From contig JACPBB010000002.1 of NCBI GenBank assembly GCA_016180525.1, forward strand, positions 122,517 through 186,516: 64,000 nt of DNA, read 5' to 3'. The translations under genes were made by a program, and so were the position numbers. Each line of letters begins with the position of its first letter. Position 1 is the stretch's first letter. Below the pieces are notes generated by a model. That model had not been told where the DNA came from. It made no database searches and saw only the letters and a list, made by a program, of their open reading frames with translations. Below are positions 8,994 to 54,156 of the stretch, piece after piece. Source of the stretch: Parcubacteria group bacterium. Lineage in GTDB: Bacteria; Patescibacteriota; Minisyncoccia; Phycocordibacterales; UBA2135.

Positions 8994-9028
8994 AGTTAGT
9001 ATTTAGTATGTAATATTTAGTATATAGA
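8994..9028. repeat. heptamer tandem repeat (AGTWTNT)x~5
   Basis: agttagt atttagt atgtaat atttagt atatag, period 7. Confidence 0.6.
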
Positions 9029-9045
9029 ATCAAGTGCCGCAGAGC

Positions 9046-9966
9046 TTATCTTATCGTTGGGTTTGGGGTTCGAAGGCGCTTCGCAATTTCCTTAAACGCG
9101 TCAATGTTTGTGGTTATAACTATAGTTTCTCTGTCTACAAAAGAATATAAAAGAATCACTTCACTCGCCGCATTTCTTAAAATTCTGACATCAGTGTTAT
9201 CAACTACTACATCCTCAAATGTTACTCGTCCGCGTGCGGATCCTGTTTGAAACAAGGGGGCGAGGTCAAAAGGCATAAACGACTCCCACTCAAGCATTCC
9301 CAAGAATGCCCCATCATAGAAACGATTTTGGAGAATTAAAACAGGCACCGTGGTTTTAAAAGAATGAAATCCGAAAAAGAATTGGTCATCAAGCGTTCGC
9401 AAAAGCTGCGGCGGAATACTGTTCGGGAGGGCGGAGAGCAATTCTGATATAGCAACGGGAGCTTCACAGAATCCCTCTATACATGTCACTTGTTTTACAA
9501 ACGCAACATGCAAGACGCTGTTTATGGGGATTGTCGCTTGCTCCCATGCGCGAGCAACTCCTGCTTTTATTTCTTGCTCAGTTATATTTGAGAGGGTGAT
9601 TTTAGAATCAACTTCAGTAAATATGGGTGTCCACAATGGAGCAACTTGAACAACTCTCGTTTCAGTCTCTTTTTTCCCGATAAATAAAAGTGCTACAACT
9701 GTCATAGCAATTATAAAAAGCACGATACCGCCTCCCATTGCGATATTTTTTAGAGAAAAAATATTCCTTTTCTCTTGCGGGGGGATTGTTGCTCCGGAGC
9801 TGTCTCTTCTCGCGCTTTCGGCAACTACCATGCGGGCAAGCGACTGTTTGCCCGACTTCATTGATTCTGCCACGTCACTTTTATATGTCCGCAAACGTTG
9901 CAGAGGACTTTCTTCTTTTTTGGGAAAGATGTTCTTATTTTCATCCATATGAGGTAATAATAACAC
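9046..9966 (-). CDS. membrane-anchored hypothetical protein
   Basis: A 306-aa ORF with one TM segment (GGGIVLFIIAMTVVALLFIG) and an extracytoplasmic domain. No motif recognised. Confidence 0.5.
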   Translation of the reverse strand: MLLLPHMDENKNIFPKKEESPLQRLRTYKSDVAESMKSGKQSLARMVVAESARRDSSGATIPPQEKRNIFSLKNIAMGGGIVLFIIAMTVVALLFIGKKETETRVVQVAPLWTPIFTEVDSKITLSNITEQEIKAGVARAWEQATIPINSVLHVAFVKQVTCIEGFCEAPVAISELLSALPNSIPPQLLRTLDDQFFFGFHSFKTTVPVLILQNRFYDGAFLGMLEWESFMPFDLAPLFQTGSARGRVTFEDVVVDNTDVRILRNAASEVILLYSFVDRETIVITTNIDAFKEIAKRLRTPNPTIR

Positions 9967-9996
9967 ACCCCGCTTTGTGCGGGGGTGTGTTATGTT

Positions 9997-12186: not shown

Positions 12187-12327
12187 TGTATATGAAGAGC
12201 TCGTCTTTAGATTTTAGACTTGAATGTAAAATCTCATTCAAACCTATCCATCTAAGGACGAACTCATATTATGTATAATATCTGCTAGTTTAGCAAAAAC
12301 CCCATATTTTGCAATGGTTAAAAATAC

Positions 12328-12356
12328 TTGACAAACATACTAAAACATGATAATGT
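12328..12356 (+). promoter_or_regulatory. sigma70-like promoter (TTGACA-17nt-TAATGT with upstream TG)
   Basis: TTGACA at 12328-12333 is followed by TGATAATGT. It drives a plus-strand unit that ends at the terminator at 12727-12761. Confidence 0.45.
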
Positions 12357-12499
12357 TTAATTAGGTTTTGGGGGGTCTAGCCGTACCAACCCGACCTGAC
12401 CTCAGGGTCTTTTGAAAAACGCGCAAGGAGCCTTAACAGCGCTCCGGGCCCTTGGCGAAAATCAAGGGCCTTTCTACATAAAAAAGAGGGAGTTTGAAA

Positions 12500-12724
12500 A
12501 TGTTTGGATGCAAGAGAAAACCACCAGGAAGTCACGGACTATTCGGGCAATCAACGAAGGACAAAAAAAGAAAAGCTGGTCGCAACAGAAAAATCAAGAG
12601 AATGTTAGGGTTACAAAAGCAGCGGTTGCTGGACCTGGGGTCATCTCCAAAAAGGAGTGGTGAAGATATTTTTGATCATTGCCGCAGGCTCCCAGGTTCC
12701 TTTGAAGGAGGAAAGAGGAGATAG
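12500..12724 (+). CDS. candidate small basic protein (74 aa), alternatively non-coding
   Basis: AAGAGGGAG lies 7 nt before ATG 12500. The product MFGCKRKPPGSHGLFGQSTKDKKRKAGRNRKIKRM... is very basic. The stop is immediately followed by a plus-strand intrinsic terminator. No family recognised. Confidence 0.35.
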   Translation: MFGCKRKPPGSHGLFGQSTKDKKRKAGRNRKIKRMLGLQKQRLLDLGSSPKRSGEDIFDHCRRLPGSFEGGKRR

Positions 12725-12726
12725 TT

Positions 12727-12761
12727 GCCCCGCCAAGAATATGGCGGGGTTTATCTTTTTC
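12727..12761 (+). terminator. intrinsic terminator (GCCCCGCC-loop-GGCGGGG + TTTATCTTTTTC)
   Basis: A GC stem followed by a T-run on the plus strand, with no plus-strand gene downstream. Confidence 0.6.
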
Positions 12762-13278
12762 TTTGTCCTCCTCCACCTAAAAGAAATTTTTTGGGATTTT
12801 CATCCAAGTCAAAAAAGTCGTCAGCCGCTTCTTTGAGCCGGCCGGAAGAGGATTTGCCGAATGAAACGATTTCAACCTGACACCCCTCGTTCATTTGGAG
12901 GTATTCAACGAGCGGGATGAAGTCGCCATCGCCTGAAGCGACAATGACCGTATCAAGTTTTGGAGCCATTTTTATGGCATCAATCGCGATACCGACGTCC
13001 CAGTCTGCTTTTTTTGCGCCACCATAGAAAATTTGCAGTGGTTTTGCGACTGTTTCAATTCCAGCTTTTGCAAGAGCGTCAAGAAAATTTTTCTCCTCGC
13101 CGGATTCTGTGGTAATAACATACGCGACGGCGCGTATAAGTTGCCTGCCCGCGACCACTTCTTTTAAAATCGCGCCAAAATTTACTCGCGCGCCGTATAA
13201 ATTACGTGCGCTGTGATAGAGATTTTGCGTGTCAATGAAAACACCAACGCGCTGATTTTTATGTTTTATGATGGCCAT
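12751..13278 (-). CDS. NYN/LabA-like (PIN-fold) domain protein
   Basis: VGVFIDTQNLYHSARNLYGARVNFGAIL...VASGDGDFIPLV matches the LabA/NYN (DUF88) signature. Confidence 0.7.
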   Translation of the reverse strand: MAIIKHKNQRVGVFIDTQNLYHSARNLYGARVNFGAILKEVVAGRQLIRAVAYVITTESGEEKNFLDALAKAGIETVAKPLQIFYGGAKKADWDVGIAIDAIKMAPKLDTVIVASGDGDFIPLVEYLQMNEGCQVEIVSFGKSSSGRLKEAADDFFDLDENPKKFLLGGGGQRKR

Positions 13279-13383
13279 AATAGTAGTATATAGTATTTAG
13301 TTTGTAGTATGAAGGTGTAAAACCAAAATTGTTCCGTATACACGGAACAATTTTGGTTTAATTTCGTAATTTTCGCGCTATGA

Positions 13384-13647
13384 TTATTTAAGTCCGATTT
13401 TTTTACGCAACTCGCCGTGTTTCTTTTCGTCCTTTCGTTTGAGATATCGTAAATGCGCGTGCCGATCGGCAACCATTTGCAAAAGCCCGCGTCTGGAATG
13501 GTTGTCTTTTCTATTTTTCTTTAAATGTGAAGCAAGTTCATTGATGCGCTTTGTGAGAAGCGCAACCTGAACTTCAGGAGAGCCAGTATCCCCCTCTTTT
13601 CGGGCGTATTTTTTGATAATATTTCCTTTTTGTTTCTTTGTAATCAT
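13384..13647 (-). CDS. rpsO: 30S ribosomal protein S15
   Basis: [62 protein letters not shown] is a canonical S15. Confidence 0.95.
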
Positions 13648-13689
13648 GTGTAAATATAAAAAATAAAAGAATTAAAAAATAAATAAAAA

Positions 13690-13949
13690 AGGGTGGAGGG
13701 GTGCGCCGACTAGGTTACGGCGCAGCAGGCTTCTATTTGGCGGTCCGATGCCGGCAAACAGTCCTGACCCCCCACAATGCGAAAGAAAAATAGAGGTGGT
13801 ATCACTCGGCCGCGAGTTGCCGCACAATAGCAGCAACGCGGGCATCAGCGTACTTCCAATTTTTCCGCCTAGCCTCCGTACCCATTTGGGACCCACGTAA
13901 AGCCGTTACCCGAGGCAACCCCTCGGTTCTGGTCACCGTACCACCTCCA
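13690..13949 (-). ncRNA. unassigned structured RNA or long rpsO leader (about 260 nt)
   Basis: A minus-strand promoter TTGACT-18-TATAAT (plus coords 13956-13985) gives a transcript starting GGAGGUGGUACGG. It is GC-rich with many hairpins. 5' GGAGGUGGUA pairs with a downstream UACCACCUCU. It ends in a hairpin plus UUUUUUAUUU (13681-13730), just upstream of rpsO. Not matched to tmRNA, RNase P or SRP by eye. Confidence 0.35.
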
Positions 13950-14060
13950 AAAGCAATTATATCATATATTGACGATAAAAGTCAACCCCGTTAGAAAGTC
14001 TAGCGCGATCGTGTGTTGATGCATGGTTTGCGAACTTGCCGGCGCAAGGCCGGGCCTTGT

Positions 14061-14088
14061 AATCAAAAAGCCGACAGCGGGTGTCGGC
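14061..14088 (-). terminator. intrinsic terminator (GCCGACACCCGCTGTCGGC + TTTTTGATT on minus)
   Basis: Follows the stop of the 14100-14372 gene. Confidence 0.65.
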
Positions 14089-14099
14089 TTGGAGAAAAT

Positions 14100-14372: not shown

Positions 14373-14457
14373 TGTTTATCTTACCTCTCTCGCCAAATTT
14401 TCTGAAAGTAAAACTATCACAACGTATTATAAAAAGCAATGTCATGTTCACCGAGCT

Positions 14458-15559: not shown

Positions 15560-16543
15560 TTACTCAACGCCGATGTCTTTGTACAAACTGAAAGATAGAT
15601 TTATTCCAAAATTTTTATACATCGCGCTTAAAGAATCAACGTCTAATTTTTTTGCGACAAGCGATTGTTTAATATACAATCCTGCCGTCTCATACAAAGG
15701 ACCAAGCATTTTTATAAGCGCTCGTTCGTCACTCTCAATTTCTTGTATCAGTTTTTGCATGGGCGGAGATAGGTGTCCCCACTCCACTGACCGTAAGTGT
15801 CTGAGGAATGTATTGGCATCTGCGATTGTTTCTTTTTTATTCAATATGTTTAAAATATCCTTATCTTCCGTAAGTATTGTCAGGCGTGCGCGCCGTTTTG
15901 CCAAATATGCAAGAAATGTTTTAGGAAAATCATGCGTCAGATCTGGCGTATATTCCCATACGCCCGAGGGGTCAAGAACAAGTTCAGAAAAATTCTTTTT
16001 ATTTTGCGCGATTGATAATTCTGAATGAAATGAAATGGTTGCGATTATATCATCTATACTCGGAGGCATCGCTGGCGCGGGTCGTTTGCCGCCCTGGATT
16101 TCCTCCATAGCAAATGGTGCTAGCCCGTGTTCGGTGAATGCATCTAGCGGATGTGTGTGAGCGAGCTTTACCTCCTCGTTGTCGCCGAAAACTTCTTCCT
16201 CAATGATTTCAACGGGAACCGAAAGTCCATCAAATTTTCCGCGCGCAAAACGTTTCCAACCTGCCTCCCCCTTTTTTCTTTTTACGAGCAACGCCATACT
16301 TTCAACATGGGAGTGAAACACTTCATCTTTGAGCGCTTTGAGTCCCACAATCCACGGGTCACCCTCTTTGATCTCTTTTGACCATGCGTGGGGTGTTTCT
16401 GCTAAAAATCCAGCGCCGAACGGAAGAAATCCAAGCGCGGCAATGTTGCTCGCACGCTTTAAAAATTCACGGCGGGGCATGCCCACCTTCTCTTTTTTAT
16501 AATCTTTTGGCTTTTCACTTTTATTATTAAAGCGCTCGTTCAT
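15560..16543 (-). CDS. hypothetical exported protein (Tat-like RREFLKRASNIAALGF signal)
   Basis: A 327-aa ORF with an N-terminal twin-arginine-like signal. No catalytic motif recognised. Confidence 0.55.
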   Translation of the reverse strand: MNERFNNKSEKPKDYKKEKVGMPRREFLKRASNIAALGFLPFGAGFLAETPHAWSKEIKEGDPWIVGLKALKDEVFHSHVESMALLVKRKKGEAGWKRFARGKFDGLSVPVEIIEEEVFGDNEEVKLAHTHPLDAFTEHGLAPFAMEEIQGGKRPAPAMPPSIDDIIATISFHSELSIAQNKKNFSELVLDPSGVWEYTPDLTHDFPKTFLAYLAKRRARLTILTEDKDILNILNKKETIADANTFLRHLRSVEWGHLSPPMQKLIQEIESDERALIKMLGPLYETAGLYIKQSLVAKKLDVDSLSAMYKNFGINLSFSLYKDIGVE

Positions 16544-18080: not shown

Positions 18081-18201
18081 TGATTCCTACTTAATTTTTT
18101 TACCAAGGTACAAAAATTAAGGATTGCTATTCCAGTATACTGGAATAGGACGCACTGTTCTTGAGTTATAAGTTGTAAGTTGTGTGTTGCGGGTTAATCC
18201 A

Positions 18202-19671
18202 TTATTCCACGTGATATCGTTTTCTGATTTCCGCAAGCTCTTTCTCTTCTTCCGCTTCGCGCTTCTTTTTTCCCGCCTCACCAAGTTTTTGCAACTCTTT
18301 GTCTTTGAGTTTCGCAAACTCAAGTGCTTTTTCTTCCAAATATTTTTTAGTATTTCGTTTGGGCTCATCAAGCACCTCTTCCAAAAGCGCGTGCAAAATC
18401 CAGCCAATGCGAGGCCCCGGTTTTTCCCCTGTGAGTTTCATAATCTCTCCTCCATCAATTTTTAACATACCAACAGTAACCGGCGCGCGCGCTGCCTCTT
18501 CAATCATTGATTCGTATTTTCGCAGGCGATACGGCTTTTCTTTTGGCCGTCCCATGCCGATTCTATCGCACGCCCGTACCTTCATTAAATCCCAGACATT
18601 GTCGGGGCCGACGTTTTTCACAAGCCGGCGTACCGCAGAGAGAGTAATTTTTTCAATATCACTAAAAAATAAGTGCCACCTAACAAGTTTCCCCACCGTG
18701 TCAATCATTTCATTTCCATATTTAAGTCGAGAAAGAGTGGCGCGGGCCACTTTTCCGCCGACAACATCATGGCCATAGAACGTCCAATCCTTTTTTTCGT
18801 CTGACCATCGGCGTGTTTCAGGTTTTGAGACATCATGAAAAAGCGCGGAGAGACGCACGTGGAGTGGCCATTCTCTGTCTGCAGAGTGTTGCACCGCACG
18901 CAAGTTGTGCTCCCACACGTCATATATATGGTCACCATTTTGCTCTATCCCAATGCCGACTTCTAACTCTGGAGTTATATACTTTAAAATTTCATGTTGA
19001 TGCAACAGTAAAATGCCACGCATAGGACTTTTTGACATCACAATTTTTGAAAATTCTTCCCGTATGCGTTCAATTGCTATGTGTTTGAGATTCCCTGCGT
19101 GTTTTTTTATTGCATCGCTTGTCTCTGTCTCAATTGCAAAGTCTAATTCTGTCGCAAGCCGCACCGCGCGCATGAGCCGAAGCGCGTCTTCGGCAAATCG
19201 CAGGTCTGCGGCTCCGACTGCGCGAATGACTTTATCTTTCAAATCCTGTTCTCCCTTAAAAAAGTCAAAAATGTCGTGCTTCACGGGGTCGTACGCGATT
19301 GCGTTTATGGTAAAATCCCTTCGCTTCAAATCATCTGCAAGTTTTTTACTGAATGTTACTTTATCGGGGCGCCGTTTGTCCGAATATTTTTCCTCAATGC
19401 GGTATGGGGTTACCTCAACAACCTTGAGTGATTTGTCTTTTGTGTCTTCATTAACAACACCAACAGTGCCATACTCATTTTCATAAAATGTGTTTTTAAA
19501 CAGTTTTTGTATTTCCTCAGGCGTTGCGTCTGTGGTGATGTCCCAGTCTTTTGGAGTTTTTTCTAAAAATAAATCACGGGTACATCCGCCCACAAGATAC
19601 GCCTCAAACCCCGCTTTTTGCAGAGTCTCGGCAATGCCGAGTACTTCTTTTGGAATCTTAAATTTTTGCAT
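18202..19671 (-). CDS. cca: CCA-adding tRNA nucleotidyltransferase with HD domain
   Basis: The N-terminal pol-beta nucleotidyltransferase motif GFEAYLVGGCTRDLFL...DWDITTDA is followed by a poly(A) polymerase head domain and an HD domain (LFHDVSKP). Confidence 0.85.
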   Translation of the reverse strand: MQKFKIPKEVLGIAETLQKAGFEAYLVGGCTRDLFLEKTPKDWDITTDATPEEIQKLFKNTFYENEYGTVGVVNEDTKDKSLKVVEVTPYRIEEKYSDKRRPDKVTFSKKLADDLKRRDFTINAIAYDPVKHDIFDFFKGEQDLKDKVIRAVGAADLRFAEDALRLMRAVRLATELDFAIETETSDAIKKHAGNLKHIAIERIREEFSKIVMSKSPMRGILLLHQHEILKYITPELEVGIGIEQNGDHIYDVWEHNLRAVQHSADREWPLHVRLSALFHDVSKPETRRWSDEKKDWTFYGHDVVGGKVARATLSRLKYGNEMIDTVGKLVRWHLFFSDIEKITLSAVRRLVKNVGPDNVWDLMKVRACDRIGMGRPKEKPYRLRKYESMIEEAARAPVTVGMLKIDGGEIMKLTGEKPGPRIGWILHALLEEVLDEPKRNTKKYLEEKALEFAKLKDKELQKLGEAGKKKREAEEEKELAEIRKRYHVE

Positions 19672-22262: not shown

Positions 22263-23018
22263 TTATTTTTCTCCAACCTCCCAAACAACAGCAAAAACAG
22301 ACTTCATGCTTTTTGTAATTTCATCACTTTCTATGATTACTCCGAATAACTTTTCTTTCAAAGCCATAAGGACAACTTTATTATCAAAAATAATCATATC
22401 ACTACTTAAGTTTAATTTTTCTTGAGGAAAGTACTTTCTTTCGGTAAGTTTTTGGGTAAGTTTTATATCTTCATTTGTAAATTTTCCCTCTTTATTTGTA
22501 TAAATAATTTTTGAATGTATATTATTTGCAATTCGTTTTTTTGAATACGCGTCTCTTTCTTTATCTGAAAATACGGCTGACAATGCATCGTGCGAATAAA
22601 TAATAAACCACTCTTTGTTTTTTGCCTTAAGCATTTCTTCCCGTATTGTGAGTAGCCCCTCTTTTCCTTCAAAAAATCTAACGCGCGGGCGCACGCCAGC
22701 GTGTTCAAATATTTTCTTTAAGTCTGGAAGCAGTTTCTCAAGTTCTTTTTCTTTGCGCGCTGTTTCCGTCTTTTTTGCGATAATAATTCTTTCCAGATGT
22801 TCAGGTGACTCTGCGGCAAAATATGTCTTTTTCCCTTCGTCAAATGAGCTCAAAAGCCCTTTTTGCATGAGAGACTCAATTTGTACGTATGTGGTGGGAC
22901 GTTTCACCCCCGCATGTTTTGAAATTTCCTCTGCTGTTGCCTTTCCAATTTCCAAAGACGCAAGGTATACCCGCGCCTCATTTTCTGAAAGTCCAAATTC
23001 TTGAAGTTCTTTTAGCAT
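22263..23018 (-). CDS. TrmB-like winged-helix transcriptional regulator (paralog 2)
   Basis: The N-terminal HTH FGLSENEARVYLASLEIGKATAEEISKHAGVKRPTTYVQIESLMQKGLL has the same architecture as paralogs 1 and 3. Confidence 0.7.
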   Translation of the reverse strand: MLKELQEFGLSENEARVYLASLEIGKATAEEISKHAGVKRPTTYVQIESLMQKGLLSSFDEGKKTYFAAESPEHLERIIIAKKTETARKEKELEKLLPDLKKIFEHAGVRPRVRFFEGKEGLLTIREEMLKAKNKEWFIIYSHDALSAVFSDKERDAYSKKRIANNIHSKIIYTNKEGKFTNEDIKLTQKLTERKYFPQEKLNLSSDMIIFDNKVVLMALKEKLFGVIIESDEITKSMKSVFAVVWEVGEK

Positions 23019-23129: not shown

Positions 23130-23568
23130 AGAGAGAGTTGGGGGGTTTGGGTTCCAAGGTACCCCCCGAACCTCGTTGCCGTGTCGCTTTAAGCGCCGTG
23201 AGGCACTGTTAGGCGGCAGCGGCTAGCCCGAATCCCTGCTCCGGTGCCATCGCGGCGAAGAAATTGCCGTGACGTACATCAGTAGGGATCCGGACCGTTC
23301 CGTTATCGTTGACATTTTGGTCAGTTAGATCTCTTTTACTCTGCCCGAAGGCAGGGTGTGCTCGCTTTTGTCACGCGCGTCGATCCTATTTCGCCCCCCT
23401 CAGGAATGCATACAGGTGGGACTTGAACCACACTTCAGCCGTTTTGGGCTTACCGGAGCGTGAAGCTCCCGCATTTCCCCTTTCGGGCTGTATGCATTCT
23501 TGGTGGAGGCGCCGGGTACTGCCCCCGGGTCTGCGACGTCTATTCTGCAGGCACGAGCTCAACCAACC
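23130..23568 (-). ncRNA. ssrA: tmRNA (ssrA), circularly permuted two-piece gene arrangement
   Basis: On the minus strand an extended -10 TGATATAAT promoter (plus 23576-23584) is followed by an acceptor piece ending ...CCGGGGGCAGUACCCGG CGCCUCC A CCA (CCA at plus 23501-23503). Next comes an intervening element closed by a perfect 12-bp stem GAAUGCAUACAG/CUGUAUGCAUUC (plus 23402-23500) that contains a T-arm-like GUGGUUCAAGUCCCAC. The coding piece starts GGGGGCGAAAUAGGAUCGACG (plus 23399 downward). 5' GGGGGCG pairs with 3' CGCCUCC, giving a G3:U70 wobble. GGAUCGACG matches the conserved tmRNA GGAUUCGACGGG. An in-frame tag ORF GCA CCG GAG CAG GGA UUC GGG CUA GCC GCU GCC GCC UAA encodes (A)PEQGFGLAAAA (plus 23209-23247). 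The 3' end of the coding piece (GGCAACGAG) pairs with the 5' end of the acceptor piece (CUCGUGCC). Confidence 0.7.
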
Positions 23569-23693
23569 GCTATCTATTATATCAGATTTTATTTAAAATG
23601 CAAGCGTTTAAACCTAAATTTAAGCGGCTTATTGAAGAAAAAGAAAAAGCATAGTAGAATTCCTATATTCAATCTTCTTGTTTCCGTAGTTTT

Positions 23694-32085: not shown

Positions 32086-32928
32086 ATGCTTTCCGCGAAA
32101 AAGGTTTTACAATTTCAAAAAATAATTTATGCGCATTATAAAAAACACGGGCGGAAACTCCCGTGGCGTCCTCCTGCGCTAAAGCTTCGGAAGGATAAAA
32201 TTTTAAATCCTTATAAAATTCTTGTTTCTGAAGTGATGCTTCAACAGACACAAGTTTCTCGCGTGATTAAAAAATATCCATTGTTTATAAAAGAGTTTAA
32301 GACGGGGCGCGCGCTTGCGCGCGCGCCGCTCTCTAAAGTTCTTTCAGTCTGGAGCGGGCTTGGATATAACCGCCGGGCAAAGTTCTTACATCACGCTGCA
32401 AAAAAAATTATTGAAAAACATGCTGGAGTCCTGCCAAGGGATGCTGAAACTCTTATGACATTGCCTGGGGTGGGGCCGGGAACTGCAGGGGCGGTAATGG
32501 CCTTTGCCTTTAATACGCCAAGTATTTTCATTGAAACAAATATACGTAGCGTATTTATTCATTATTTTTTTCCTAAAAGAAAAAAGGTGTCAGATAAAGA
32601 AATTTTACAGCTAATAAAGAAAACAATTGATAACAGAAACGTGCGCGACTGGTATTACGCGCTTATGGACTATGGGGTAATGCTTAAAGAAAAGCATAAA
32701 AATCCAAGTCGTAAAAGTGCTCATTATGTGGAACAATCTCCGTTTAAAAATTCCAACCGGCAAGTCCGCGGAGAAATTCTCAAACTTTTGACACAGCACA
32801 AATCAATTCCGAAACAAAAAATAAAAAAATATATAAAAGGTAATCAAAAATATATTAACAGCGCGCTTGAACAGCTTTTAAAAGAAAAATTTATACGGAT
32901 AAAAAATAATGTAGTTACACTTGCATAG
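32086..32928 (+). CDS. HhH-GPD base-excision DNA glycosylase (MutY/Nth family)
   Basis: LVSEVMLQQTQVSRVIKKYPLF...LSVWSGLGYNRRAKFLHHAAKKI...LPGVGPGTAGAVMAFAF. No clear 4Cys Fe-S loop is seen. Confidence 0.7.
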   Translation: MLSAKKVLQFQKIIYAHYKKHGRKLPWRPPALKLRKDKILNPYKILVSEVMLQQTQVSRVIKKYPLFIKEFKTGRALARAPLSKVLSVWSGLGYNRRAKFLHHAAKKIIEKHAGVLPRDAETLMTLPGVGPGTAGAVMAFAFNTPSIFIETNIRSVFIHYFFPKRKKVSDKEILQLIKKTIDNRNVRDWYYALMDYGVMLKEKHKNPSRKSAHYVEQSPFKNSNRQVRGEILKLLTQHKSIPKQKIKKYIKGNQKYINSALEQLLKEKFIRIKNNVVTLA

Positions 32929-38171: not shown

Positions 38172-38296
38172 CCCATGATCGCCCACCAATTATCTTTGGT
38201 GGGCGATTTACTTTACACACGTTTACATTTTAAACATTTTTAGTTATATTAGTATTATTCGTATTATTAGTACCATTAGTATATTAGTATCATCTC

Positions 38297-39198: not shown

Positions 39199-40728
39199 AT
39201 GAGTTTAAAAGTGGTTTTTGTGTTGCTCGCCGTCGCGGGCATATCTGGTATTGTCATTGGGTACTATCTCCGCTTTCTGATTACTCTCGGGAAGCGAGGC
39301 TCAATGGAATTGCGCGTAAAGCAAATGGAACTTGCCGCAAAAGAAGAAGCAAAGAAAATAGTTGAAGGTGCTGAAAAAGACGCGGTCAAATTAAAATCAG
39401 AATTAAAAGGTCTTGAAAAAGAAAAAGAATTAGAATTTAAAAAGACAGAAAATCGTCTTATAAAAAAGGAAGAGCTTTTAGACAAAAGACAGACTGATAT
39501 TGATAAGGAGGTTGAAGAGCTTAAAAAGAAGGCTGATGAAGTACGTCTTATAAAAGAGCGGGTGCTTGCCGTTGAAGTAGATAAAAAGAAAGAATTGGAG
39601 CGGGTTGCCGGTCTTTCAGAGGAAGAAGCAAAAAAAGCACTCTTTTCAGTAATGGAAAAACAGAGTGAAGAGGATTTGGTAATGAAAATGCAAAAATTGG
39701 AAAGTGTCGGGGTAGAAAAATTGCAGAAACGAGCTCAAGAAATATTAACAACCTCCATTCATCGTCTCGGGAACTCTGTTGCTTCGGAAGTTCTTGCAAC
39801 ATCGGTTACGATACCCTCGGAAGATGTAAAAGGGCGCATTATTGGAAAGGAGGGGAGAAACATTCGCGCCTTTGAACGCGCCGCGGGTGTTGAGCTTATT
39901 GTTGATGATACTCCGGGTGTTGTCATTATTTCCGCATTTGATCCAGTCCGGAGGCAAATTGCACGCATCGCGCTTGAGAATTTAATTATGGATGGACGGG
40001 TGCAGCCGGCACGCATAGAGGAAATTGTTGCGAAAGCAAAAGATGAGATAAATAAAATTATTAAAGAAAAAGGAGAACAGGCGGCATATGAGTGCGGTGT
40101 TTTCAACCTTGATCCGCGGCTCATAGCTATTTTAGGGAGGCTTTATTTCAGAACAAGCTATGGGCAGAATGTGCTCCAGCATTCAATTGAGATGGCGCAT
40201 ATTGGTGGCATGATTGCGGAAGAACTTGGAGCTGATGTTCCTATTGCCAAAGCTGGCGCCCTGCTTCACGACATTGGAAAAGCAGTTGACCACGAGGTTC
40301 AAGGAACGCATGTGCAAATTGGTCGGCGGATTTTGGAGAAGTTCGGTGCCGACAAAGCCATTATTCAGGCAATGCAGTCGCACCATGAAGAATATCCTTA
40401 TGAAACGGTTGAATCGGTTATTGTGCAGGTGGCGGATGCAATTTCTGGGGGTCGTCCCGGAGCACGGAGAGACACGGTAGAAAATTATCTTAAACGTCTC
40501 CAAGAGCTGGAAACGATTGCCAACTCTCACGAAGGTGTTGAAAAGTCTTATGCAATTCAAGCGGGTCGCGAGGTGCGTGTATTCGTGTACCCCGACAAAG
40601 TTTCTGATCTAGAAGCGCAGAAAATTGCTCGTGATATTGCTCGGCAGGTTGAACAGGAACTTAAATATCCAGGAGAAATCAAAATAAGCGTTATACGGGA
40701 AAATCGTATTGTTGAATACGCCAGGTAG
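39199..40728 (+). CDS. rny: ribonuclease Y
   Basis: An N-terminal TM segment is followed by a coiled-coil, a KH domain (RIIGKEGRNIRAFE) and an HD domain (ALLHDIGKA). Confidence 0.9.
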   Translation: MSLKVVFVLLAVAGISGIVIGYYLRFLITLGKRGSMELRVKQMELAAKEEAKKIVEGAEKDAVKLKSELKGLEKEKELEFKKTENRLIKKEELLDKRQTDIDKEVEELKKKADEVRLIKERVLAVEVDKKKELERVAGLSEEEAKKALFSVMEKQSEEDLVMKMQKLESVGVEKLQKRAQEILTTSIHRLGNSVASEVLATSVTIPSEDVKGRIIGKEGRNIRAFERAAGVELIVDDTPGVVIISAFDPVRRQIARIALENLIMDGRVQPARIEEIVAKAKDEINKIIKEKGEQAAYECGVFNLDPRLIAILGRLYFRTSYGQNVLQHSIEMAHIGGMIAEELGADVPIAKAGALLHDIGKAVDHEVQGTHVQIGRRILEKFGADKAIIQAMQSHHEEYPYETVESVIVQVADAISGGRPGARRDTVENYLKRLQELETIANSHEGVEKSYAIQAGREVRVFVYPDKVSDLEAQKIARDIARQVEQELKYPGEIKISVIRENRIVEYAR

Positions 40729-40943
40729 AGTCGTGTGACCCAAACCCTAAAACGTATAACTCAAAAACCTATATATTACAAGAGCTTTTCTCTAATTTTG
40801 ACTTCATGTTGCTTGTTGTAAGATACATGTTTTAGGTATGTGGATAAGTTGTGTATATATTGCAAGGATATTTTGTTGCGGTATGATAAGAGCTTAGATA
40901 AAATTATTGATAATTAAAGCGTTTTTGGTCGATTAAAAATAAA

Positions 40944-41011
40944 AGCGTTTAGCGGTTAGCGTATAGCGTTTAGTTTAAACTGAACCCTGAACGCTGAACC
41001 CTAAACCCTAA
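40944..41011. repeat. two adjacent heptamer tandem repeats (AGCGKTT)x4 and (TGAACCC)x4
   Basis: agcgttt agcggtt agcgtat agcgttt lies at 40944-40973. tgaaccc tgaacgc tgaaccc taaaccc lies at 40981-41008. Both are directly upstream of the HU gene. Confidence 0.7.
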
Positions 41012-41366: not shown

Positions 41367-41726
41367 TTAAAAATTCAATTCTGTATCAATGTTTCCAAGC
41401 TCTGTATCAAGGTCTTCAAGTATAGTTGCGTCTAAATCAGATTCAATTACTCCTACTTCATCAGATGCTCCTTGTGTTTGAAGCATTTCAAGAGTAGAGT
41501 CCTTATTTCCCAATATTTCTTCCGCTGTTGGTGAGAGTAGTCCTTCGTCGTTTACTTTTTTTCCAATAAAGTAAAGCCCCCCAAAAATAATTATAATAAT
41601 GATGATAACGACTCCAATAATCGGGCCAATTTGTGTCTTTTGTGTGTGCGCATTGCCCATATTTATCTGGGGAGAGGGAGATGCCGCCGCTCCTTGGTTG
41701 TTTACTTGTTGATCTCTGTTTTCCAT
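41367..41726 (-). CDS. small single-TM membrane protein (119 aa)
   Basis: Poly-Ile TM segment IIGVVIIIIIIIFGGLYFI. Confidence 0.5.
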   Translation of the reverse strand: MENRDQQVNNQGAAASPSPQINMGNAHTQKTQIGPIIGVVIIIIIIIFGGLYFIGKKVNDEGLLSPTAEEILGNKDSTLEMLQTQGASDEVGVIESDLDATILEDLDTELGNIDTELNF

Positions 41727-43292: not shown

Positions 43293-43387
43293 AGGGTATA
43301 ATGCGAAATTACGAAACAGTATGCGAAACTACAAAAATCGTTTTTTATTTTTTTGTAGTTTTCGGATATTCTTTCGTATATTTCGTG

Positions 43388-44761: not shown

Positions 44762-44763
44762 GA

Positions 44764-48855: not shown

Positions 48856-48859
48856 ATCA

Positions 48860-48891
48860 ATTTCAGATTTCAGATTGCAGATTTCAGATTT
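48860..48891. repeat. heptamer tandem repeat (ATTTCAG)x4.5 in 5' UTR of pilin gene
   Basis: atttcag atttcag attgcag atttcag attt. It ends 6 nt before ATG 48898. Confidence 0.7.
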
Positions 48892-48897
48892 AAAATA

Positions 48898-49401
48898 ATG
48901 AATAAAAAAAATAAAATCTTATATCTTACATCGTATATCTTAAATCCCCAGAGGGGTTTAACGCTCATAGAAATTATTATTTCTATAGGCATTCTGGTGG
49001 TTATCGGGACGATTGGAACAGGCGCATTTTCATCATTTAAAAAATCTTCTGACCTTGTCTCTGCGGCTGATATTGTCGTAAACAACCTTATTCAAGCTCG
49101 CTCAAAAACACTCTCTGCGGAGGAGGCAAAGCAATACGGAGTGCATTTTGAAACCGACAAAATCGTTTTTTATTCGGGGACTACATACATCGCTGGGGCT
49201 TCTGATAATAAGGAAACGACACTCCCTAAAACAATTGAAATTTCTTCTGTAGCATTAAATGGCGGCGGAGCAGATACTTTATTTAAAAAACTAACCGGAG
49301 AAACGGATAATGATGGAGTTGTTACTGTTCGGCTTAAATCTGACACCTCAAAAACAAAAACTATACACATACGCCCCGTAGGACTTACGACAGTTGAATA
49401 A
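48898..49401 (+). CDS. prepilin-type (type IV pilin/pseudopilin) protein
   Basis: QRG|LTLIEIIISIGILVVIG is the class III signal with E5. Confidence 0.8.
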   Translation: MNKKNKILYLTSYILNPQRGLTLIEIIISIGILVVIGTIGTGAFSSFKKSSDLVSAADIVVNNLIQARSKTLSAEEAKQYGVHFETDKIVFYSGTTYIAGASDNKETTLPKTIEISSVALNGGGADTLFKKLTGETDNDGVVTVRLKSDTSKTKTIHIRPVGLTTVE

Positions 49402-49440
49402 GTCATGAAACGTGTAACATAAAACACACAATTTAAGAAA

Positions 49441-49980
49441 ATGTATAATCAAACAAATAATAAAAAGCTACAAGCTACAAGCTACAAGCTACAAGCTAAA
49501 AACGGTTTCGGTCTTATTGAAATACTCGTTGCCTCCGCGATTCTCTCTGCCTCTCTCGTGACACTTACAGCGTCAAGCCAAATCGCGTTTCGTTTAATGA
49601 AAGAAAGTCTGGAGAGAACACAAGCGGGGTTTTTAGTTGAAGAGGGCGTTGAAGTCACGCGAATTCTGCGCGATGACGCCTGGTCTTTGAACATTGCTCC
49701 TGTTCCCACGGGAGTAGAAATGTACTTCGTTTTTGCATCAAGTACAAACACATGGACTCTAGAAAGCGCCGCTCCCCCGCTTATAGAAAATTTGTTCACT
49801 CGAAGAGTTGTTTTTGATGATGTATATCGCAGAGATTCAGATGGAGAAATAATAGACGAAGGATCTCTTGACCCAAAAACTCTTGATCCAGACACAAGAA
49901 AGGCGACAATTGAGGTCCTCTGGGGAGACGGAAGAAACGTGACGTTTGAAACATATATCGCTAATATTTTTCAAAACTAA
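49441..49980 (+). CDS. prepilin-type protein with heptamer repeat inside leader
   Basis: The class III signal is KNG|FGLIEILVASAIL. (GCTACAA)x4.4 at 49467-49497 encodes KLQATSYKLQA in the leader. The only in-frame ATG is upstream of the repeat. Confidence 0.75.
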   Translation: MYNQTNNKKLQATSYKLQAKNGFGLIEILVASAILSASLVTLTASSQIAFRLMKESLERTQAGFLVEEGVEVTRILRDDAWSLNIAPVPTGVEMYFVFASSTNTWTLESAAPPLIENLFTRRVVFDDVYRRDSDGEIIDEGSLDPKTLDPDTRKATIEVLWGDGRNVTFETYIANIFQN

Positions 49981-50005
49981 TAAAGCGTAAAACGCAAAGC
50001 GCAAA

Positions 50006-50593
50006 ATGCAAAACAACAACGTAAAATTTAAAATATTTTCTATTAGAAAAAAATGTTTTTCGCTTTTCGCTTTTCGCTTTTCGCTTAAGCGTGGTGCGGG
50101 AATTCTTGAGACACTCATTTATATAGCAATTGTGTCCTTGCTTACTGTCATTGTTATTAATACGGCAATGGTTATGTCTGCCACTTCTGGCAAAGCTCGT
50201 CTAAAACGAAATATGTTGGGAGAAGTTGGAATTGCGGTTGAAAGAATGGTACGGGAAATACGTTTGGCTGACAGTATTGATCTTCCCGGAAGCATCCTTG
50301 GAATTAATCCGGGTATCCTTAAGTTAAACACTACTGTTGGCTCCGAGGATAACACTCCGACAACTCGAGAATTTTATATTTCAAACAATATGCTTATGAT
50401 GAGAGAAGGGACAAATGAACCGGTTTCTCTTACCGAAAAAATTACTGTCACGGATCTTATTTTTTATCATCTCACCACCTCCGCGATGACATCCGAAGCG
50501 ATAACTCTCGAGCTTTCCGCTGAAGGAAAGTTAAGAAACACAACGGAGCTCCGCACATTTAATACGACCGCGGTTATGCGGAGAAGCTATTAG
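50006..50593 (+). CDS. prepilin-type protein with heptamer repeat inside leader
   Basis: The class III signal is KRGAG|ILETLIYIAIVSLL. (CGCTTTT)x4 at 50055-50086 encodes FSLFAFRFSL in the leader. Confidence 0.7.
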   Translation: MQNNNVKFKIFSIRKKCFSLFAFRFSLKRGAGILETLIYIAIVSLLTVIVINTAMVMSATSGKARLKRNMLGEVGIAVERMVREIRLADSIDLPGSILGINPGILKLNTTVGSEDNTPTTREFYISNNMLMMREGTNEPVSLTEKITVTDLIFYHLTTSAMTSEAITLELSAEGKLRNTTELRTFNTTAVMRRSY

Positions 50594-50597
50594 TGTA

Positions 50598-50623
50598 ATT
50601 TCAGATTTCAAATTTCAAATTTT
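50598..50623. repeat. heptamer tandem repeat (ATTTCAR)x3.5
   Basis: atttcag atttcaa atttcaa atttt, upstream of the 50633 gene. Confidence 0.65.
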
Positions 50624-50632
50624 AAAAAATAT

Positions 50633-51964
50633 ATGAAACATTCAATCTGCAATCTGCAATCTGCAATCTGCAATCAAAGGGGGCAGACCCCTCGACACAA
50701 CTCGGGACAAGCGGCTATTATCGCGACGCTTTTTTTCGTTGCGGTGACGCTTGTGCTCTCCGTCGGCTCAGCCGGGGTGGCACTTAAAGAAGAGTCTGCT
50801 TCTCGCTCAAATGTTCTCGGGAAAAAAGGTTATTTTCTTTCAGAGGCAGGACAGGAAGATGTTATTTATCGAATCTTTACCGGGAAACCGGTTCCTACTA
50901 ACGTTGTACTTTCACTCGGAGGGGATACGGTAACGACAACGGTCGCGGATATTGGAGTTGATAGAAAAGATATTACTGCGTTTGGAAAATCGGGGAAAAA
51001 CACAAGGAAAACACAAGTCGCACTTTTGGTTGGAGAAGGCACATCATTTGTCTACGGGGTACAAGTGGGGGATGGAGGGCTTTTGCTTGAAAACAGCTCA
51101 GAGGTTATTGGTAACGTATTTTCAAACGGTCCGATTGAGGGGCGCAATAGCAATATTGTCCGGGGTGAAGTTATCTCCGCAGGTCCCGAGGGATTAATTG
51201 ATGACGTACACGCGACAAGTTCCGCATATGCGCACACAATAAAAGATTCGTTGATTGAAGGAGACGCGCACTATCAAGATATTGTAAATACTACTGTGTT
51301 GGGGCAGCTGTTTCCAGGAAGCGCAGAGGAGGAGCCGGTCGCTTTTCCAATTACCGATGAAATGGTTGATATCTGGAAGACAGAGGCAGAAGCAGCAGGT
51401 GTTATTTCGTCGCCGTGTCCATATGTCATTAAAAATGACATTACACTTGGTCCGGTAAAAATAAATTGTGACGTAAACATAAGTCAATCTCCTACAGTAA
51501 CGCTTGCTGGAAACGTCTGGATTGCCGGTAATCTAGAAATCAGCAATACACCAACAATAGTAGCAGCTCCATCGGTCGGCAATAAAAGTGTTATTGTTAT
51601 CGCGGATAATCCGGCCAATCGTCTTACGAGCAGCAGAATTGAACTTGAGAATTCATCTGAATTTTATGGTTCAGGAGAGCCAGGTTCATATATTCTTTTT
51701 CTTTCTCAAAACAATAGCGCAGAGCTTGGAGGAGGAGAGGAAGCTATTGAAATCGGGAATAGCGCAGAGGGGGATATTATATTGTATGCGGGGCACGGAG
51801 AAATAGTGCTTCAAAATACAGTATTTTTACGAGAAGTGACCGGCTACAAGGTGCATCTTAAAAATTCCGCGAAGGTAGAATATAACATGGGACTTCAGAA
51901 TGTTTTATTTTCAACAGGGCCGTCGGGTGGATATGAAATTATTGATTGGAAGGAAATTGAATAA
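50633..51964 (+). CDS. large prepilin-like minor pilin/tip-associated protein (443 aa) with heptamer repeat inside leader
   Basis: (CAATCTG)x5 at 50643-50675 encodes SICNLQSAICNQ. The hydrophobic alpha1 NSG|QAAIIATLFFVAVTLVL has no E5. It is followed by a large Gly/Ser/Thr-rich extracellular domain. Confidence 0.6.
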   Translation: MKHSICNLQSAICNQRGQTPRHNSGQAAIIATLFFVAVTLVLSVGSAGVALKEESASRSNVLGKKGYFLSEAGQEDVIYRIFTGKPVPTNVVLSLGGDTVTTTVADIGVDRKDITAFGKSGKNTRKTQVALLVGEGTSFVYGVQVGDGGLLLENSSEVIGNVFSNGPIEGRNSNIVRGEVISAGPEGLIDDVHATSSAYAHTIKDSLIEGDAHYQDIVNTTVLGQLFPGSAEEEPVAFPITDEMVDIWKTEAEAAGVISSPCPYVIKNDITLGPVKINCDVNISQSPTVTLAGNVWIAGNLEISNTPTIVAAPSVGNKSVIVIADNPANRLTSSRIELENSSEFYGSGEPGSYILFLSQNNSAELGGGEEAIEIGNSAEGDIILYAGHGEIVLQNTVFLREVTGYKVHLKNSAKVEYNMGLQNVLFSTGPSGGYEIIDWKEIE

Positions 51965-52090
51965 AATAATAACTCGAATCTACGAATACACCCGAAAATC
52001 GCGAATATATTTGAATGGCATTTTTTAAAGTATTCGGGATTTTCGAGTAAGTCATTCGGATTATTCGGGTTATTGGTATACTATATAGCA

Positions 52091-52858
52091 ATGAAAACTA
52101 AGCAGCTTATAGTGGCTAACTGGAAGATGAATCCACGGACTCCTAAAGAGGCCCGCGCTCTTTTTCAATCAACGAAACGCACAGCGGGCCATCTCACAAA
52201 AGTGCAGACGGTAGTTTGCCCCCCCGCTGTTTTTTTAGGACTTTTCTCTCCCCTTGTTTCACGTAACTGTTTCTTGGGGGCACAAGATATGTTTTGGGAA
52301 AAAGAAGGTGCATATACGGGGAAAATATCCCCCGCTCAATTACACGCTCTCAATGTTTCTTATGTTATTCTTGGGCACTCCGAGGAGCGTGCACTCGGTG
52401 AAACAAATGAAGATATACAAAAGAAAATCAGAGCGGCATTTGAATATCGGCTCAATGCTATTCTCTGTATCGGAGAAAAGGAGCGTGATCACGAAGGACA
52501 CTATCTTTCTTTTTTAAAAGAGCAAATAAAAAAATCTCTTGGGAAAATTCCCGGAAAGGAATTAGGGCGGCTCATTATTGCCTATGAGCCGATATGGGCT
52601 ATTGGCGCTCTGGCAAAGAAAGCAGACACGCCGCGGGCCCTTTTAGAAATTGTCATTTTTATAAGAAAGGTATTAAGCGATATGTACGACAAATCAATCG
52701 CATTTCAAATTTCTATTTTATATGGAGGGTCTGTGAATGCCCAAAACGCCGAAGCGTTTTTAAAAGATGGGGGCGTTAACGGACTTTTGGTGGGACGTGC
52801 GAGCCTTGATACGAAAGAGTTTACAGAAATTTTAAAAATCACAAAACAAATAAAGTAG
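52091..52858 (+). CDS. tpiA: triosephosphate isomerase
   Basis: VANWKMN...ILGHSERR-like ILGHSEER...CIGE...AYEPIWAIG. The track ORF starts at 52073; the start is taken at MKTKQ. Confidence 0.9.
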   Translation: MKTKQLIVANWKMNPRTPKEARALFQSTKRTAGHLTKVQTVVCPPAVFLGLFSPLVSRNCFLGAQDMFWEKEGAYTGKISPAQLHALNVSYVILGHSEERALGETNEDIQKKIRAAFEYRLNAILCIGEKERDHEGHYLSFLKEQIKKSLGKIPGKELGRLIIAYEPIWAIGALAKKADTPRALLEIVIFIRKVLSDMYDKSIAFQISILYGGSVNAQNAEAFLKDGGVNGLLVGRASLDTKEFTEILKITKQIK

Positions 52859-52935
52859 GCACTAGGCGTTAGGCGCTAGGCACTAGGAAAAAACGATGAT
52901 ATTCCTAAAGCCTAAAGCCTAAAGCCTAAAGCCTA
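52856..52935. repeat. two heptamer tandem repeats (TAGGCRY)x4.5 and (CCTAAAG)x4.5 in the tpiA-pgk spacer
   Basis: taggcac taggcgt taggcgc taggcac tagg lies at 52856-52887. cctaaag repeated 4 times plus ccta lies at 52904-52935. The pgk ATG is at 52941. Confidence 0.75.
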
Positions 52936-52940
52936 GTAAC

Positions 52941-54050
52941 ATGGATTTGCCTCTCTTAAAAAACGCGAAAAAAATATCCGGAAAAAAATTTTTGGTCCGC
53001 ATTGATGTTAATGTGCCTATTTTAAATGGAGAGGTGCAAGATAATTTTCGCATAAAGCGCCTTATCCCCACCCTTTCATTTTTGAAGAAAAAAAAGGGAA
53101 AAATTATTTTGTTGAGCCACCACTCGGATGAAAAGCAGACACTTAAACCGATGGCCCAATATTTAAATACTTTTTTTAAAACATCGTTTGTGCCGGATAT
53201 GTTTGCCGCAAAGGCGTTTGAAGAGGAAGATGCTCTTTTTTTATGCGAGAATCTGCGATTTTATAAAGAAGAAGAAGAAAATGAGGCCGTATTTTCTGAG
53301 AAACTTGCTTCCCTGGGCGATATTTATATAAACGAAGCGTTTTCAGTTTCCCACAGAAAGCACGCTTCTGTTGTTTCTTTACCTAAACTGCTTCCGCACT
53401 ATGCGGGGTTTTTATTTCAGGAAGAGATAAAAAATTTAGAGGCCGTGTTTAATCCGCCGAAGCCGTTTTTATTTATTTTAGGAGGACGAAAAGCAGACAC
53501 AAAACTCGCACTTGCTCAAAAGTTTATCGATATTGCCGATTACATCTTTATAGGAGGAGCGGTTGTTAATAATATTTTTAAAGCACAAGGGTATGAGGTG
53601 GGAAGGTCAATTGTTGATGACGGAATATCCGGATTTGAAAATTTAATGAGAAGTAAAAATATCGTGTTTCCAAAAGACGTAGTGGTTCAGAAAGAAAGCG
53701 GTGTTGTTTCGGTAAAATCTCCAGGAGAGGTGTTGTTAGATGAGAAAATACTTGATGCTGGGCCAGAGGCACTCAATATTTTAAAAGGCTTGATACGGAG
53801 CTCTGCGTTTATAGTATGGAATGGTCCGCTTGGACAATACGAGATCGGATTTGAAAAATCAACAATAGAAATGATTGAGGCATTTAGGGAAAGTAAGGCA
53901 AAAAAAGTTGTCGGCGGAGGGGACACAATCGCGGCGATTTCAAAATTGGGTGATCAAAAAGATTTTGATTTTATTTCAACAGGCGGTGGTGCGATGCTTG
54001 AATTTTTAGTAAATCGCACACTGCCGGGGATTGAAGTGCTCAAACATTAG
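52941..54050 (+). CDS. pgk: phosphoglycerate kinase
   Basis: FLVRIDVNVP...NLRF...C-terminal GGGDT-like GGGDTIAAI. Confidence 0.9.
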   Translation: MDLPLLKNAKKISGKKFLVRIDVNVPILNGEVQDNFRIKRLIPTLSFLKKKKGKIILLSHHSDEKQTLKPMAQYLNTFFKTSFVPDMFAAKAFEEEDALFLCENLRFYKEEEENEAVFSEKLASLGDIYINEAFSVSHRKHASVVSLPKLLPHYAGFLFQEEIKNLEAVFNPPKPFLFILGGRKADTKLALAQKFIDIADYIFIGGAVVNNIFKAQGYEVGRSIVDDGISGFENLMRSKNIVFPKDVVVQKESGVVSVKSPGEVLLDEKILDAGPEALNILKGLIRSSAFIVWNGPLGQYEIGFEKSTIEMIEAFRESKAKKVVGGGDTIAAISKLGDQKDFDFISTGGGAMLEFLVNRTLPGIEVLKH

Positions 54051-54156
54051 AATGCAGAATGCAGAACAAAATCATTCCGATGACCATCGGGATGATTTCG
54101 TTGGTGATTGACAAGAAAATTTTTTCCTGTAATCTGACGATTAGAACAAAAAAGAG

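Follow-up and report, generated by a model that had tools for sequence, protein, structure and literature searches.

Paired and single heptanucleotide arrays beside start codons in a Parcubacteria genome

Why should the space in front of many genes of one bacterial genome be occupied by a sequence of 7 nt repeated four or five times, in many different sequences? The question is raised by a 64,000-nt stretch (the window) of the metagenome-assembled genome of a Parcubacteria group bacterium, a tiny member of the candidate phyla radiation (CPR; Patescibacteria) (assembly GCA_016180525.1, contig JACPBB010000002.1, positions 122,517 to 186,516 of the forward strand), in which such arrays adjoin the genes for HU, type IV pilins, pgk and clpP, among others. 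These arrays belong to a class known to dominate the intergenic tandem repeats of many prokaryotes, encountered here in a Parcubacteria genome; the class is already known and its function is unexplained in the literature, while the start-abutting, paired form that it takes in Patescibacteria is new. In the window the arrays are organised into paired or single cassettes near ATG codons. The explanation that we favour, although only tentatively, is that they are heptanucleotide simple sequence repeats which arose by 7-nt misalignment and were built into cassettes acting as leader or spacer structure in the mRNA.

A scan for period 7 with Tandem Repeats Finder (TRF), which the first-pass annotation had suggested for the whole genome as a check, was run on the window and returned 16 arrays of at least three copies. 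Over 100 dinucleotide shuffles, the number of such arrays averaged 0.25 and never exceeded 2, and no period other than 7 had more than two arrays in the window. An independent autocorrelation scan of the window gave 13 intervals with period 7 and 0–1 for each of the other periods from 4 to 12. Clean arrays hold 3.9–4.9 units by TRF, and their length has a mode of about 4–5 units and does not follow a geometric decay. Arrays are present at all 11 sites that had been listed as 7-bp repeats; nine of these are clean period-7 arrays of 3.9–4.7 units, whereas the array at 38240–38293 is irregular (TRF period 9/18) and that at 54049–54066 has only 2.6 units. Assembly artefact, which had been named as a possible source of the repeats, is ruled out by the agreement of independent assemblies: Logan assemblies of several SRA runs carry the identical array sequences, equivalent arrays occur in relatives' assemblies from NCBI, ENA/TARA and JGI, and the arrays of L045 do not differ from those of L046, a relative from another sample, the two showing 2 mismatches over 11.5 kb.

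The arrays are head-to-tail tandems of at least ten different heptamer units, with ATTTCAR common to the arrays at 48860 and 50597 and AGTAT common to those at 8996, 13284 and 38240. The proposal that every locus has its own, unrelated heptamer holds for the multiplicity of units, but adjacent arrays are reverse complements of one another and cassettes are met again at other loci and in other genomes. For each of the five adjacent pairs of the window (HU, pilin 1, pilin 3, pilin 4 and pgk), the neighbouring array is the best reverse-complement match within 130 nt, with an arm-to-partner identity of 0.64–0.83 (p <=0.005 relative to random segments). Across loci, a complementarity of at least 0.67 is reached by 20 of 21 adjacent pairs, compared with 0.52 +/- 0.12 for arms taken from different loci. 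The resulting cassette consists of a 5' arm, an A-rich loop and a 3' arm, with about 30–34 nt per array, and about half of the arrays form such convergent inverted pairs. The arms are complementary at 5–6 of the 7 positions of the unit, so that a transcript or single-stranded DNA could fold into a long hairpin with periodic mismatches. For the HU and pgk pairs, long hairpins are predicted in which helices of 5–6 bp are interrupted every 7 nt, with folding energies of -28 kcal/mol (z -6.2) for HU and -40 kcal/mol (z -8.8) for pgk.

The cassettes are positioned with respect to start codons. Nearly all arrays lie at most 60 nt upstream of a start or in the first 120 nt of an open reading frame (ORF), and in the non-pilin cassettes (pgk, HU, pilB, pilC, nusA, ppa) the ATG comes 3–8 nt after the 3' arm, a distance that is also kept in the longer spacers of HU, pilB and nusA; hairpins or single arrays at non-pilin genes end 2–10 nt ahead of the ATG. 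Within operons the 5' arm starts 0–5 nt past the upstream stop codon, so that the cassette occupies the entire spacer. At the pilin genes the ATG lies in the loop or in the 5' arm, and the 3' arm is translated as a leader peptide. Hence, the initial description of the arrays as intergenic applies to most of them but not to four, at 48916–48946, 49465–49498, 50057–50086 and 50643–50675, which had been overlooked and which lie in the leader-peptide region of type IV prepilin ORFs 3' of PilB and PilC. The last three of these are perfect, and the pilin arrays encode part of the leader directly ahead of the cleavage motif G↓F(G/T)L(I/V)E. Besides these prepilin leader arrays, the exceptions to a non-coding placement are a few in-frame arrays in coding sequence. 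Likewise, the arrays had been placed upstream of start codons, and they do abut starts, except that the array at 54049–54066, and a previously unlisted one at 18162–18191, lie between a stop codon and a terminator-like hairpin.

Most genes of the window lack a Shine-Dalgarno (SD) site, and many have a -10-like hexamer 6–10 nt ahead of the ATG; examples of SD-less starts with such hexamers are found at 22263–23018, 31286, 15560–16543 and 54589–54975. The -10-like boxes close to the ATG suggest that leaderless mRNAs or mRNAs with very short leaders are widespread. SD use and array density were not correlated across loci, all of these Patescibacteria being SD-poor. A role in termination was rejected, as the hairpins run into the ATG region and are not followed by U-tracts on the sense strand, with an antisense U-tail recognised by eye in 3 of 9. 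A role as promoters was likewise rejected: consensus scans showed no enrichment, and a good -10 box overlaps the clpP array only, with a -10-like TATATT at the 5' edge of this array (38240–38293). The idea that the units provide a stop in all three frames gave an ambiguous result, with stop trinucleotides in 32 of 48 units compared with 22.8 expected, an enrichment that is equal on both strands.

A cyanobacterial origin, which the STRR heptanucleotides of that group had brought to mind, was rejected, as the closest relatives are metagenome-assembled genomes of Patescibacteria/Parcubacteria; the pilin-2 protein is identical to one from a Parcubacteria group bacterium in NCBI. Relatives of the window's PilC are encoded by metagenome-assembled genomes of Patescibacteria, for example of Candidatus Taylorbacteria, and the gene order RNase Y, HU, ppa, nusA, pilB, pilC, four pilins, tpi, pgk is kept in syntenic relatives. 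L045 is rich in arrays (15 in 20.5 kb), and L047, L048, L055, L005, L017 and L020 are similar. Several cassettes recur in these genomes as sequence families. The type-V cassette, (TAGGCRY)x4, an A-rich loop and (CCTAAAG)x4, stands ahead of pgk in the window, of three genes in L047 (pilC, nusA and ppa) and of one further gene in L005; the five copies in three genomes are all oriented alike with respect to the gene, and the three copies of L047 lie within 12 kb. No target-site duplications or conserved termini flank the type-V copies. The cassette ATTTCAG...ATG...AAATCTT is found at pilin 1 of the window, pilins 1 and 2 of L047 and pilin 4 of L045, and the cassette AAAACGC(ATG)...TTTTCGC at pilin 3 of the window and pilins 1 and 2 of L045. 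Cassette copies are 72–91% identical, compared with 65–72% for the DNA of PilB, PilC, HU, pgk and the mature pilins. Copies in different genomes have identical array lengths and share imperfect units, for example GATTGCA, indicating that they are stably inherited sequences and not fast-slipping microsatellites.

A comparison with related genomes had been proposed at the outset, and at the HU leader it gives a mixed answer. The site of the cassette is kept with swapped heptamers: the window and L055 have AGCGTTT/CTGAACC there, L045 and L051 have AACAACC/GTTGTWR. In L050 the site holds a hairpin that is not made of heptamers, and in L052 and L056 it is empty; the heptamer pairs of orthologous HU leaders differ yet remain complementary. 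Upstream of this variable cassette there is a conserved HU 5'-leader motif, AATTAAAG..TTTT.GGTCGA (window 40905–40935), which is found at the same place in L045, L051, L055 and L056 and is kept even in relatives without arrays. Some HU proteins in databases (P0019, P0020 and P0026; 108–127 aa) are 15–35 residues longer than the norm of 92–93 aa, and may be ORFs that gene callers have extended upstream through heptamer arrays. Between two pilin genes of L020 (3687–3797), a near-perfect GGAACAT/ATGTTCC hairpin pair encloses a 54-nt loop with a perfect GC-rich stem-loop followed by a T-run, resembling a terminator.

Arrays of this kind are also found in viral contigs. (TAGGCNN)x3.5 is present at no fewer than 119 IMG/VR loci with 26–70% GC, where about 0.4 matches are expected by chance; all IMG/VR figures are lower bounds, taken from the matches listed. 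TAGGC was rejected as a special, widely conserved core, as the control cores TGAGC (at least 120 loci) and GATGC (at least 73 loci) are also abundant. Among the matches listed, 72 of 140 TAGGC arrays have a complementary array downstream, at a median gap of 25 nt, and none has one upstream, the (TAGGCNN)n arm always lying 5' of its (NNGCCTA)n partner (loci L059–L297); for TGAGC, again among the matches listed, 28 complementary arrays lie downstream and 3 upstream. A plain requirement for a hairpin does not predict this strict convergent order of the inverted pairs.

How do arrays of so many sequences come to share one period? In the array-rich loci (217 kb), TRF finds 107, 38 and 10 arrays with periods of 7, 14 and 21, respectively, compared with 12, 3 and 3 in array-poor relatives (243 kb), whereas the other periods are similarly frequent in both sets. 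This joint enrichment points to misalignment or slippage in steps of 7 nt. The window also contains five tandem duplications of 21 nt (3 x 7), compared with 0.02 in shuffles; three of the five fall within coding sequence, in which the frame is preserved by multiples of 21 only. With these numbers, the common generating mechanism put forward by the first-pass annotation is plausible, and the step of 7 fits an origin by polymerase slippage that has already been proposed for heptamers (Mrazek et al. 2007, as cited in PMC4692102). The step is thus visible in the periods themselves, and we infer that replication misalignment is the process that takes it. In two relatives, the start codon of an RNase H gene is part of an array of the ATTCATG type (L005 18709–18895; L017 19988–20218), and both genes contain further in-frame heptamer arrays as internal insertions, for example (GGTCAAT)x3.

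Table 1. Period-7 arrays and 21-nt tandem duplications in the window (positions are those of the window)
Feature	Unit and copies	Positions	Strand	Context and source
Single array	sense ATACTAA, about 4.6 units	8996..9027	-	2 nt 5' of ATG of DksA/TraR zinc-finger gene (8604-8993, -); Pfam, TRF
Single array	sense ATACTAN, 3.9 units	13284..13310	-	5 nt 5' of ATG of NYN-domain gene (12751-13278, -); Pfam, TRF
A-rich array	period 7/8	13652..13687	-	4 nt 5' of rpsO (S15, 13384-13647, -); low complexity, class membership doubtful; TRF, Pfam
Short array	AGTTGTA, 2.9 units	18162..18191	-	Upstream stop is that of a CCA-adding/poly(A) polymerase family gene (18202-19671, -)
Irregular array	TTAGTAT-type, mixed 7/9-nt spacing	38240..38293	+	Ends 3 nt 5' of clpP ATG (38297)
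HU cassette, 5' arm	(AGCGTTT) x4.3	40944..40973	+	TRF
HU cassette, 3' arm	(CTGAACC) x4.3	40980..41009	+	73% reverse complement of 5' arm; HU ATG 41018, 8 nt on
Pilin-1 cassette, 5' arm	(ATTTCAG) x4.6	48860..48891	+	Begins 4 nt past PilC stop
Pilin-1 cassette, 3' arm	(ATCTTAT) x4.4	48916..48946	+	Within leader-peptide coding sequence; ATG 48898 in loop
Pilin-2 array, perfect	(AAGCTAC) x4.9	49465..49498	+	Encodes leader KLQATSYKLQA ahead of G↓FGLIE cleavage motif
Pilin-3 cassette, 5' arm	(AAAGCGY/AAAACGC) x4.7	49982..50014	+	ATG 50006 inside arm
Pilin-3 cassette, 3' arm, perfect	(TTTTCGC) x4.3	50057..50086	+	Within leader-coding sequence
Pilin-4 cassette, 5' arm	(AATTTCA) x4.3	50597..50626	+	Begins 3 nt past upstream stop codon
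Pilin-4 cassette, 3' arm, perfect	(CAATCTG) x4.7	50643..50675	+	Within coding sequence; ATG 50633 in loop
pgk cassette (type V), 5' arm	(TAGGCRY) x4.6	52856..52887	+	First TAG is tpi stop codon
pgk cassette (type V), 3' arm, perfect	(CCTAAAG) x4.6	52904..52935	+	pgk ATG 52941, 5 nt on
Short array	(AGAATGC) x2.6	54049..54066	+	Begins at pgk stop codon; followed by terminator-like hairpin
21-nt tandem duplications		22456-22500, 32816-32855, 39303-39343, 41380-41420, 43346-43385		

An Rfam covariance-model scan of the window found no family at the arrays, its sole matches at gathering score being tRNAs and one transfer-messenger RNA (tmRNA). The latter, at 23136–23607 on the minus strand, matches alpha_tmRNA (89.9 bits) and tmRNA_permuted (75.9 bits) and is a two-piece permuted tmRNA, which is notable in a Parcubacteria genome. 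Logan contigs from three SRA runs (L041–L044) start exactly at 40947 and the upstream contig ends at 40971, with the 25-nt overlap inside the imperfect HU 5' arm; these contig ends may reflect a population polymorphism or a drop in coverage related to the hairpin.

Under the explanation that we favour, replication misalignment in 7-nt steps would create the arrays, which would persist only where the sequence is tolerant, in 5' leaders, in intercistronic spacers and in prepilin leader peptides that are later cleaved off. The cassettes are passed on stably; members of one sequence family stand at different genes and in different genomes, and at orthologous sites cassettes are exchanged or lost. 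They would act at the mRNA level, as a leader or spacer that fixes the leader structure ahead of SD-less start codons, with hairpin presentation or insulation of the start codon, 5' stabilisation and provision of a processing site as candidate roles, and they would be neither hypervariable switches nor sites for one sequence-specific protein. An effect on transcription or translation is favoured by the way in which they are oriented relative to the gene and by their tight spacing from the ATG.

A number of observations weigh against this role in the mRNA, which is itself something that we infer. On the sense strand, folding of the pilin pairs is weak (z -1.3 to -2.6) and the mismatches between arms are A.C in 56 cases and G.U in 16, and 17 of the 23 pairs fold more stably on the antisense strand. 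Selection for a sense-RNA hairpin by way of G.U pairs was therefore rejected, the bias being the opposite one, and the A.C excess together with the stabler antisense fold implies that a strong sense-RNA hairpin is not what selection maximises, although the A-rich, G-poor composition of start regions may be a partial cause of the bias. Arm complementarity could be maintained by template switching instead of selection. Some arrays stand alone: no inverted partner was detected for those at 8996..9027 and 13284..13310, nor a partner arm for the pilin-2 array at 49465..49498. Folded together, the five TAGGC cassettes give a well-supported consensus, but most of its positions do not vary and a single change, from U-A to C-G, is clearly compensatory; covariation within this one family is thin (5 sequences, 2 compensatory pairs). 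The equally syntenic relatives L056-58 and L052, whose HU is 85–91% identical, have no arrays at the same genes, which makes any function dispensable. Finally, the strict convergent polarity in viral contigs is left unexplained by a plain need for hairpins. It is the contrary bias on the sense strand and the possibility of template switching that lead us to hold the mRNA-leader explanation with reserve.

Template switching is also part of the alternative that the arrays are functionless by-products of mutation, made by 7-nt slippage and by template switching at quasi-palindromes, with selection merely purging the harmful ones. This would account for the co-enrichment of periods 7, 14 and 21, including 21-nt duplications inside genes, for the patchy distribution among lineages with syntenic relatives free of arrays, for cassette turnover at the orthologous HU leader, for in-frame arrays inside the relatives' RNase H genes and for the lack of preference for sense-strand hairpins, and its slippage component is the published idea mentioned above. 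We nevertheless consider it rather unlikely, because by-products would not be expected to be more conserved than the adjoining coding DNA, with identical lengths and common imperfections, to stay within 3–8 nt of the ATG even in the long HU, pilB and nusA spacers, to show one gene-relative orientation in all five type-V copies, or to have a modal length of about 4–5 units in place of a geometric decay. The occurrence of one cassette at non-orthologous genes and in several genomes, the three type-V copies in 12 kb of L047, the presence, absence and type swaps at orthologous sites and the pilin leader cassettes common to paralogues could also be taken to mean that these are small dispersed palindromic elements of the REPIN, MITE or Correia-like kind, spreading by copying or recombination among leaders and genomes. 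However, an insertion is not expected to result in a precise spacing from the ATG, target-site duplications and conserved termini were not seen at the cassette copies, and an architecture common to many unrelated heptamer families speaks for building in place and not for one mobile lineage, all of which makes spreading elements an improbable source.

The perfect arrays at 49465, 50057 and 50643, whose unit is not a multiple of 3 and which lie in the leaders of surface pilins, have the classic layout of contingency loci, in which gain or loss of a 7-nt unit would frameshift the pilin genes on or off. In Haemophilus influenzae, repeats of 7 nt are indeed responsible for the phase variation of hmw genes (PMC12721329, PMC8262952), and Logan contigs break at the arrays, although assembly with k=31 can be expected to break at a perfect array of at least 32 nt. 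Phase variation appears very unlikely all the same, given that each array has just 4–5 units, that array lengths and imperfect units are the same in genomes about 30% diverged in coding DNA, that L045 and L046 agree although they come from different samples, and that the same class of array is found at the housekeeping genes HU, pgk, clpP, nusA and ppa. Less probable still are binding platforms for a protein that reads periodicity, be it an OB-fold protein of the cold-shock or S1 type (about 6–7 nt per domain) on RNA or a DNA-binding oligomer. A constant period and copy number despite differing sequences, and a position where the ribosome-binding region would be, are in line with such a reader, a proposal also made for TAACTGA repeats (PMC4679880), and the strict order in which the arms of inverted pairs follow each other in viral contigs may point to a reader with a direction. 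But paired arms would conceal the single strand, no candidate gene was identified, and the many heptamers of one genome exclude a single sequence-specific reader, so that the common reader envisaged by the first-pass annotation is unlikely as a protein that reads sequence.

REP/REPIN, Correia/MITE and Rickettsia palindromic elements are dispersed, co-transcribed extragenic hairpins, some of which lie in frame inside genes. They form single families without internal tandem heptads or a fixed distance to the ATG, whereas the window cassettes have both. In cyanobacteria such as Calothrix and Nostoc, the STRR are tandem heptanucleotides dispersed in intergenic DNA, with few fixed heptamers and often long arrays. 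To our knowledge, no relation to start codons and no hairpin cassettes have been described for STRR; they share with the window arrays the intergenic heptanucleotide, but have few fixed units in place of start-linked hairpin cassettes. STRR heptanucleotide repeats are also mentioned in PMC4692102.

The first-pass annotation was not aware of a described equivalent of the window arrays, but published ones exist (PMC6344855, PMC4692102, PMC4679880). Among the intergenic repeats of prokaryotes, tandem heptamers are reported to be the most abundant, and 'no clear clue' is said to exist as to what they do (PMC6344855). The pan-prokaryotic surveys (Mori et al. 2019, PMC6344855; Mrazek et al. 2007, as relayed in PMC4692102) share with the window the dominance of period 7 and the diversity of units; in the former, and in what is relayed of the latter, neither Patescibacteria nor start-abutting or leader-peptide arrays, cassette families or a joint enrichment of periods 7, 14 and 21 are described. 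The GGGAATC arrays of Xanthomonas mostly have 4 units and lie 0–50 bp from ORFs, with about 70 of about 185 sites (~40%) being convergent inverted pairs (Rehm et al. 2015, PMC4692102). These arrays and the GGGGAYT arrays of Nostoc resemble those of the window in having about 4 units, convergent pairs and a location near ORF ends, and from one species to another they keep their position and their type, single or paired (PMC4692102). In contrast, they follow one G-rich consensus per genome with G-quadruplex potential, while the window has many families without G3 tracts, its arrays directly abut the ATG and some are inside coding leaders. The TAACTGA direct repeats of marine Beggiatoaceae, cyanobacteria and Bacteroidetes, for which a role in translation has been proposed (MacGregor 2015, PMC4679880), are like the window arrays in having 2–6 copies in forward orientation a few nt upstream of starts where SD sites are rare (PMC4679880). 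However, a single heptamer is used genome-wide and inverted pairs are almost absent (one indirect repeat), whereas the window has many heptamers and pairs; none of its arrays has a TAACTGA unit by TRF. The heptamers of the H. influenzae hmw promoters lie in the 5' region and have RNA-level effects through the structure of the 5' untranslated region and RNase III (PMC12721329, PMC8262952). The hmw arrays have many more units and documented variation in copy number, unlike the 4–5 units of the window; no differences in length were seen between cassette copies or between L045 and L046 in the assemblies compared, Logan contigs ending at the arrays.

At a practical level, such arrays mislead gene callers on start sites and break k=31 assemblies. 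Their anatomy in this lineage is unusually clean, with a fixed distance to the ATG, complementarity between neighbours, conservation above that of coding DNA, periods of 7, 14 and 21 and array-free sister genomes, and it turns a vague problem into testable questions: whether the arrays arise by 7-nt slippage, whether they structure mRNA leaders, and why they have a polarity. A bolder form of the mRNA-leader explanation, which we consider unlikely, is that hairpin cassettes with heptad arms serve SD-poor bacteria as a conserved, portable module for initiating translation or processing mRNA, in which the cassette would replace the Shine-Dalgarno duplex or yield near-leaderless mRNAs and so present or insulate start codons. 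If this were true, the module would be the first functional handle on the 'prime-number' period-7 repeats of prokaryotes and viruses, their polarity included.

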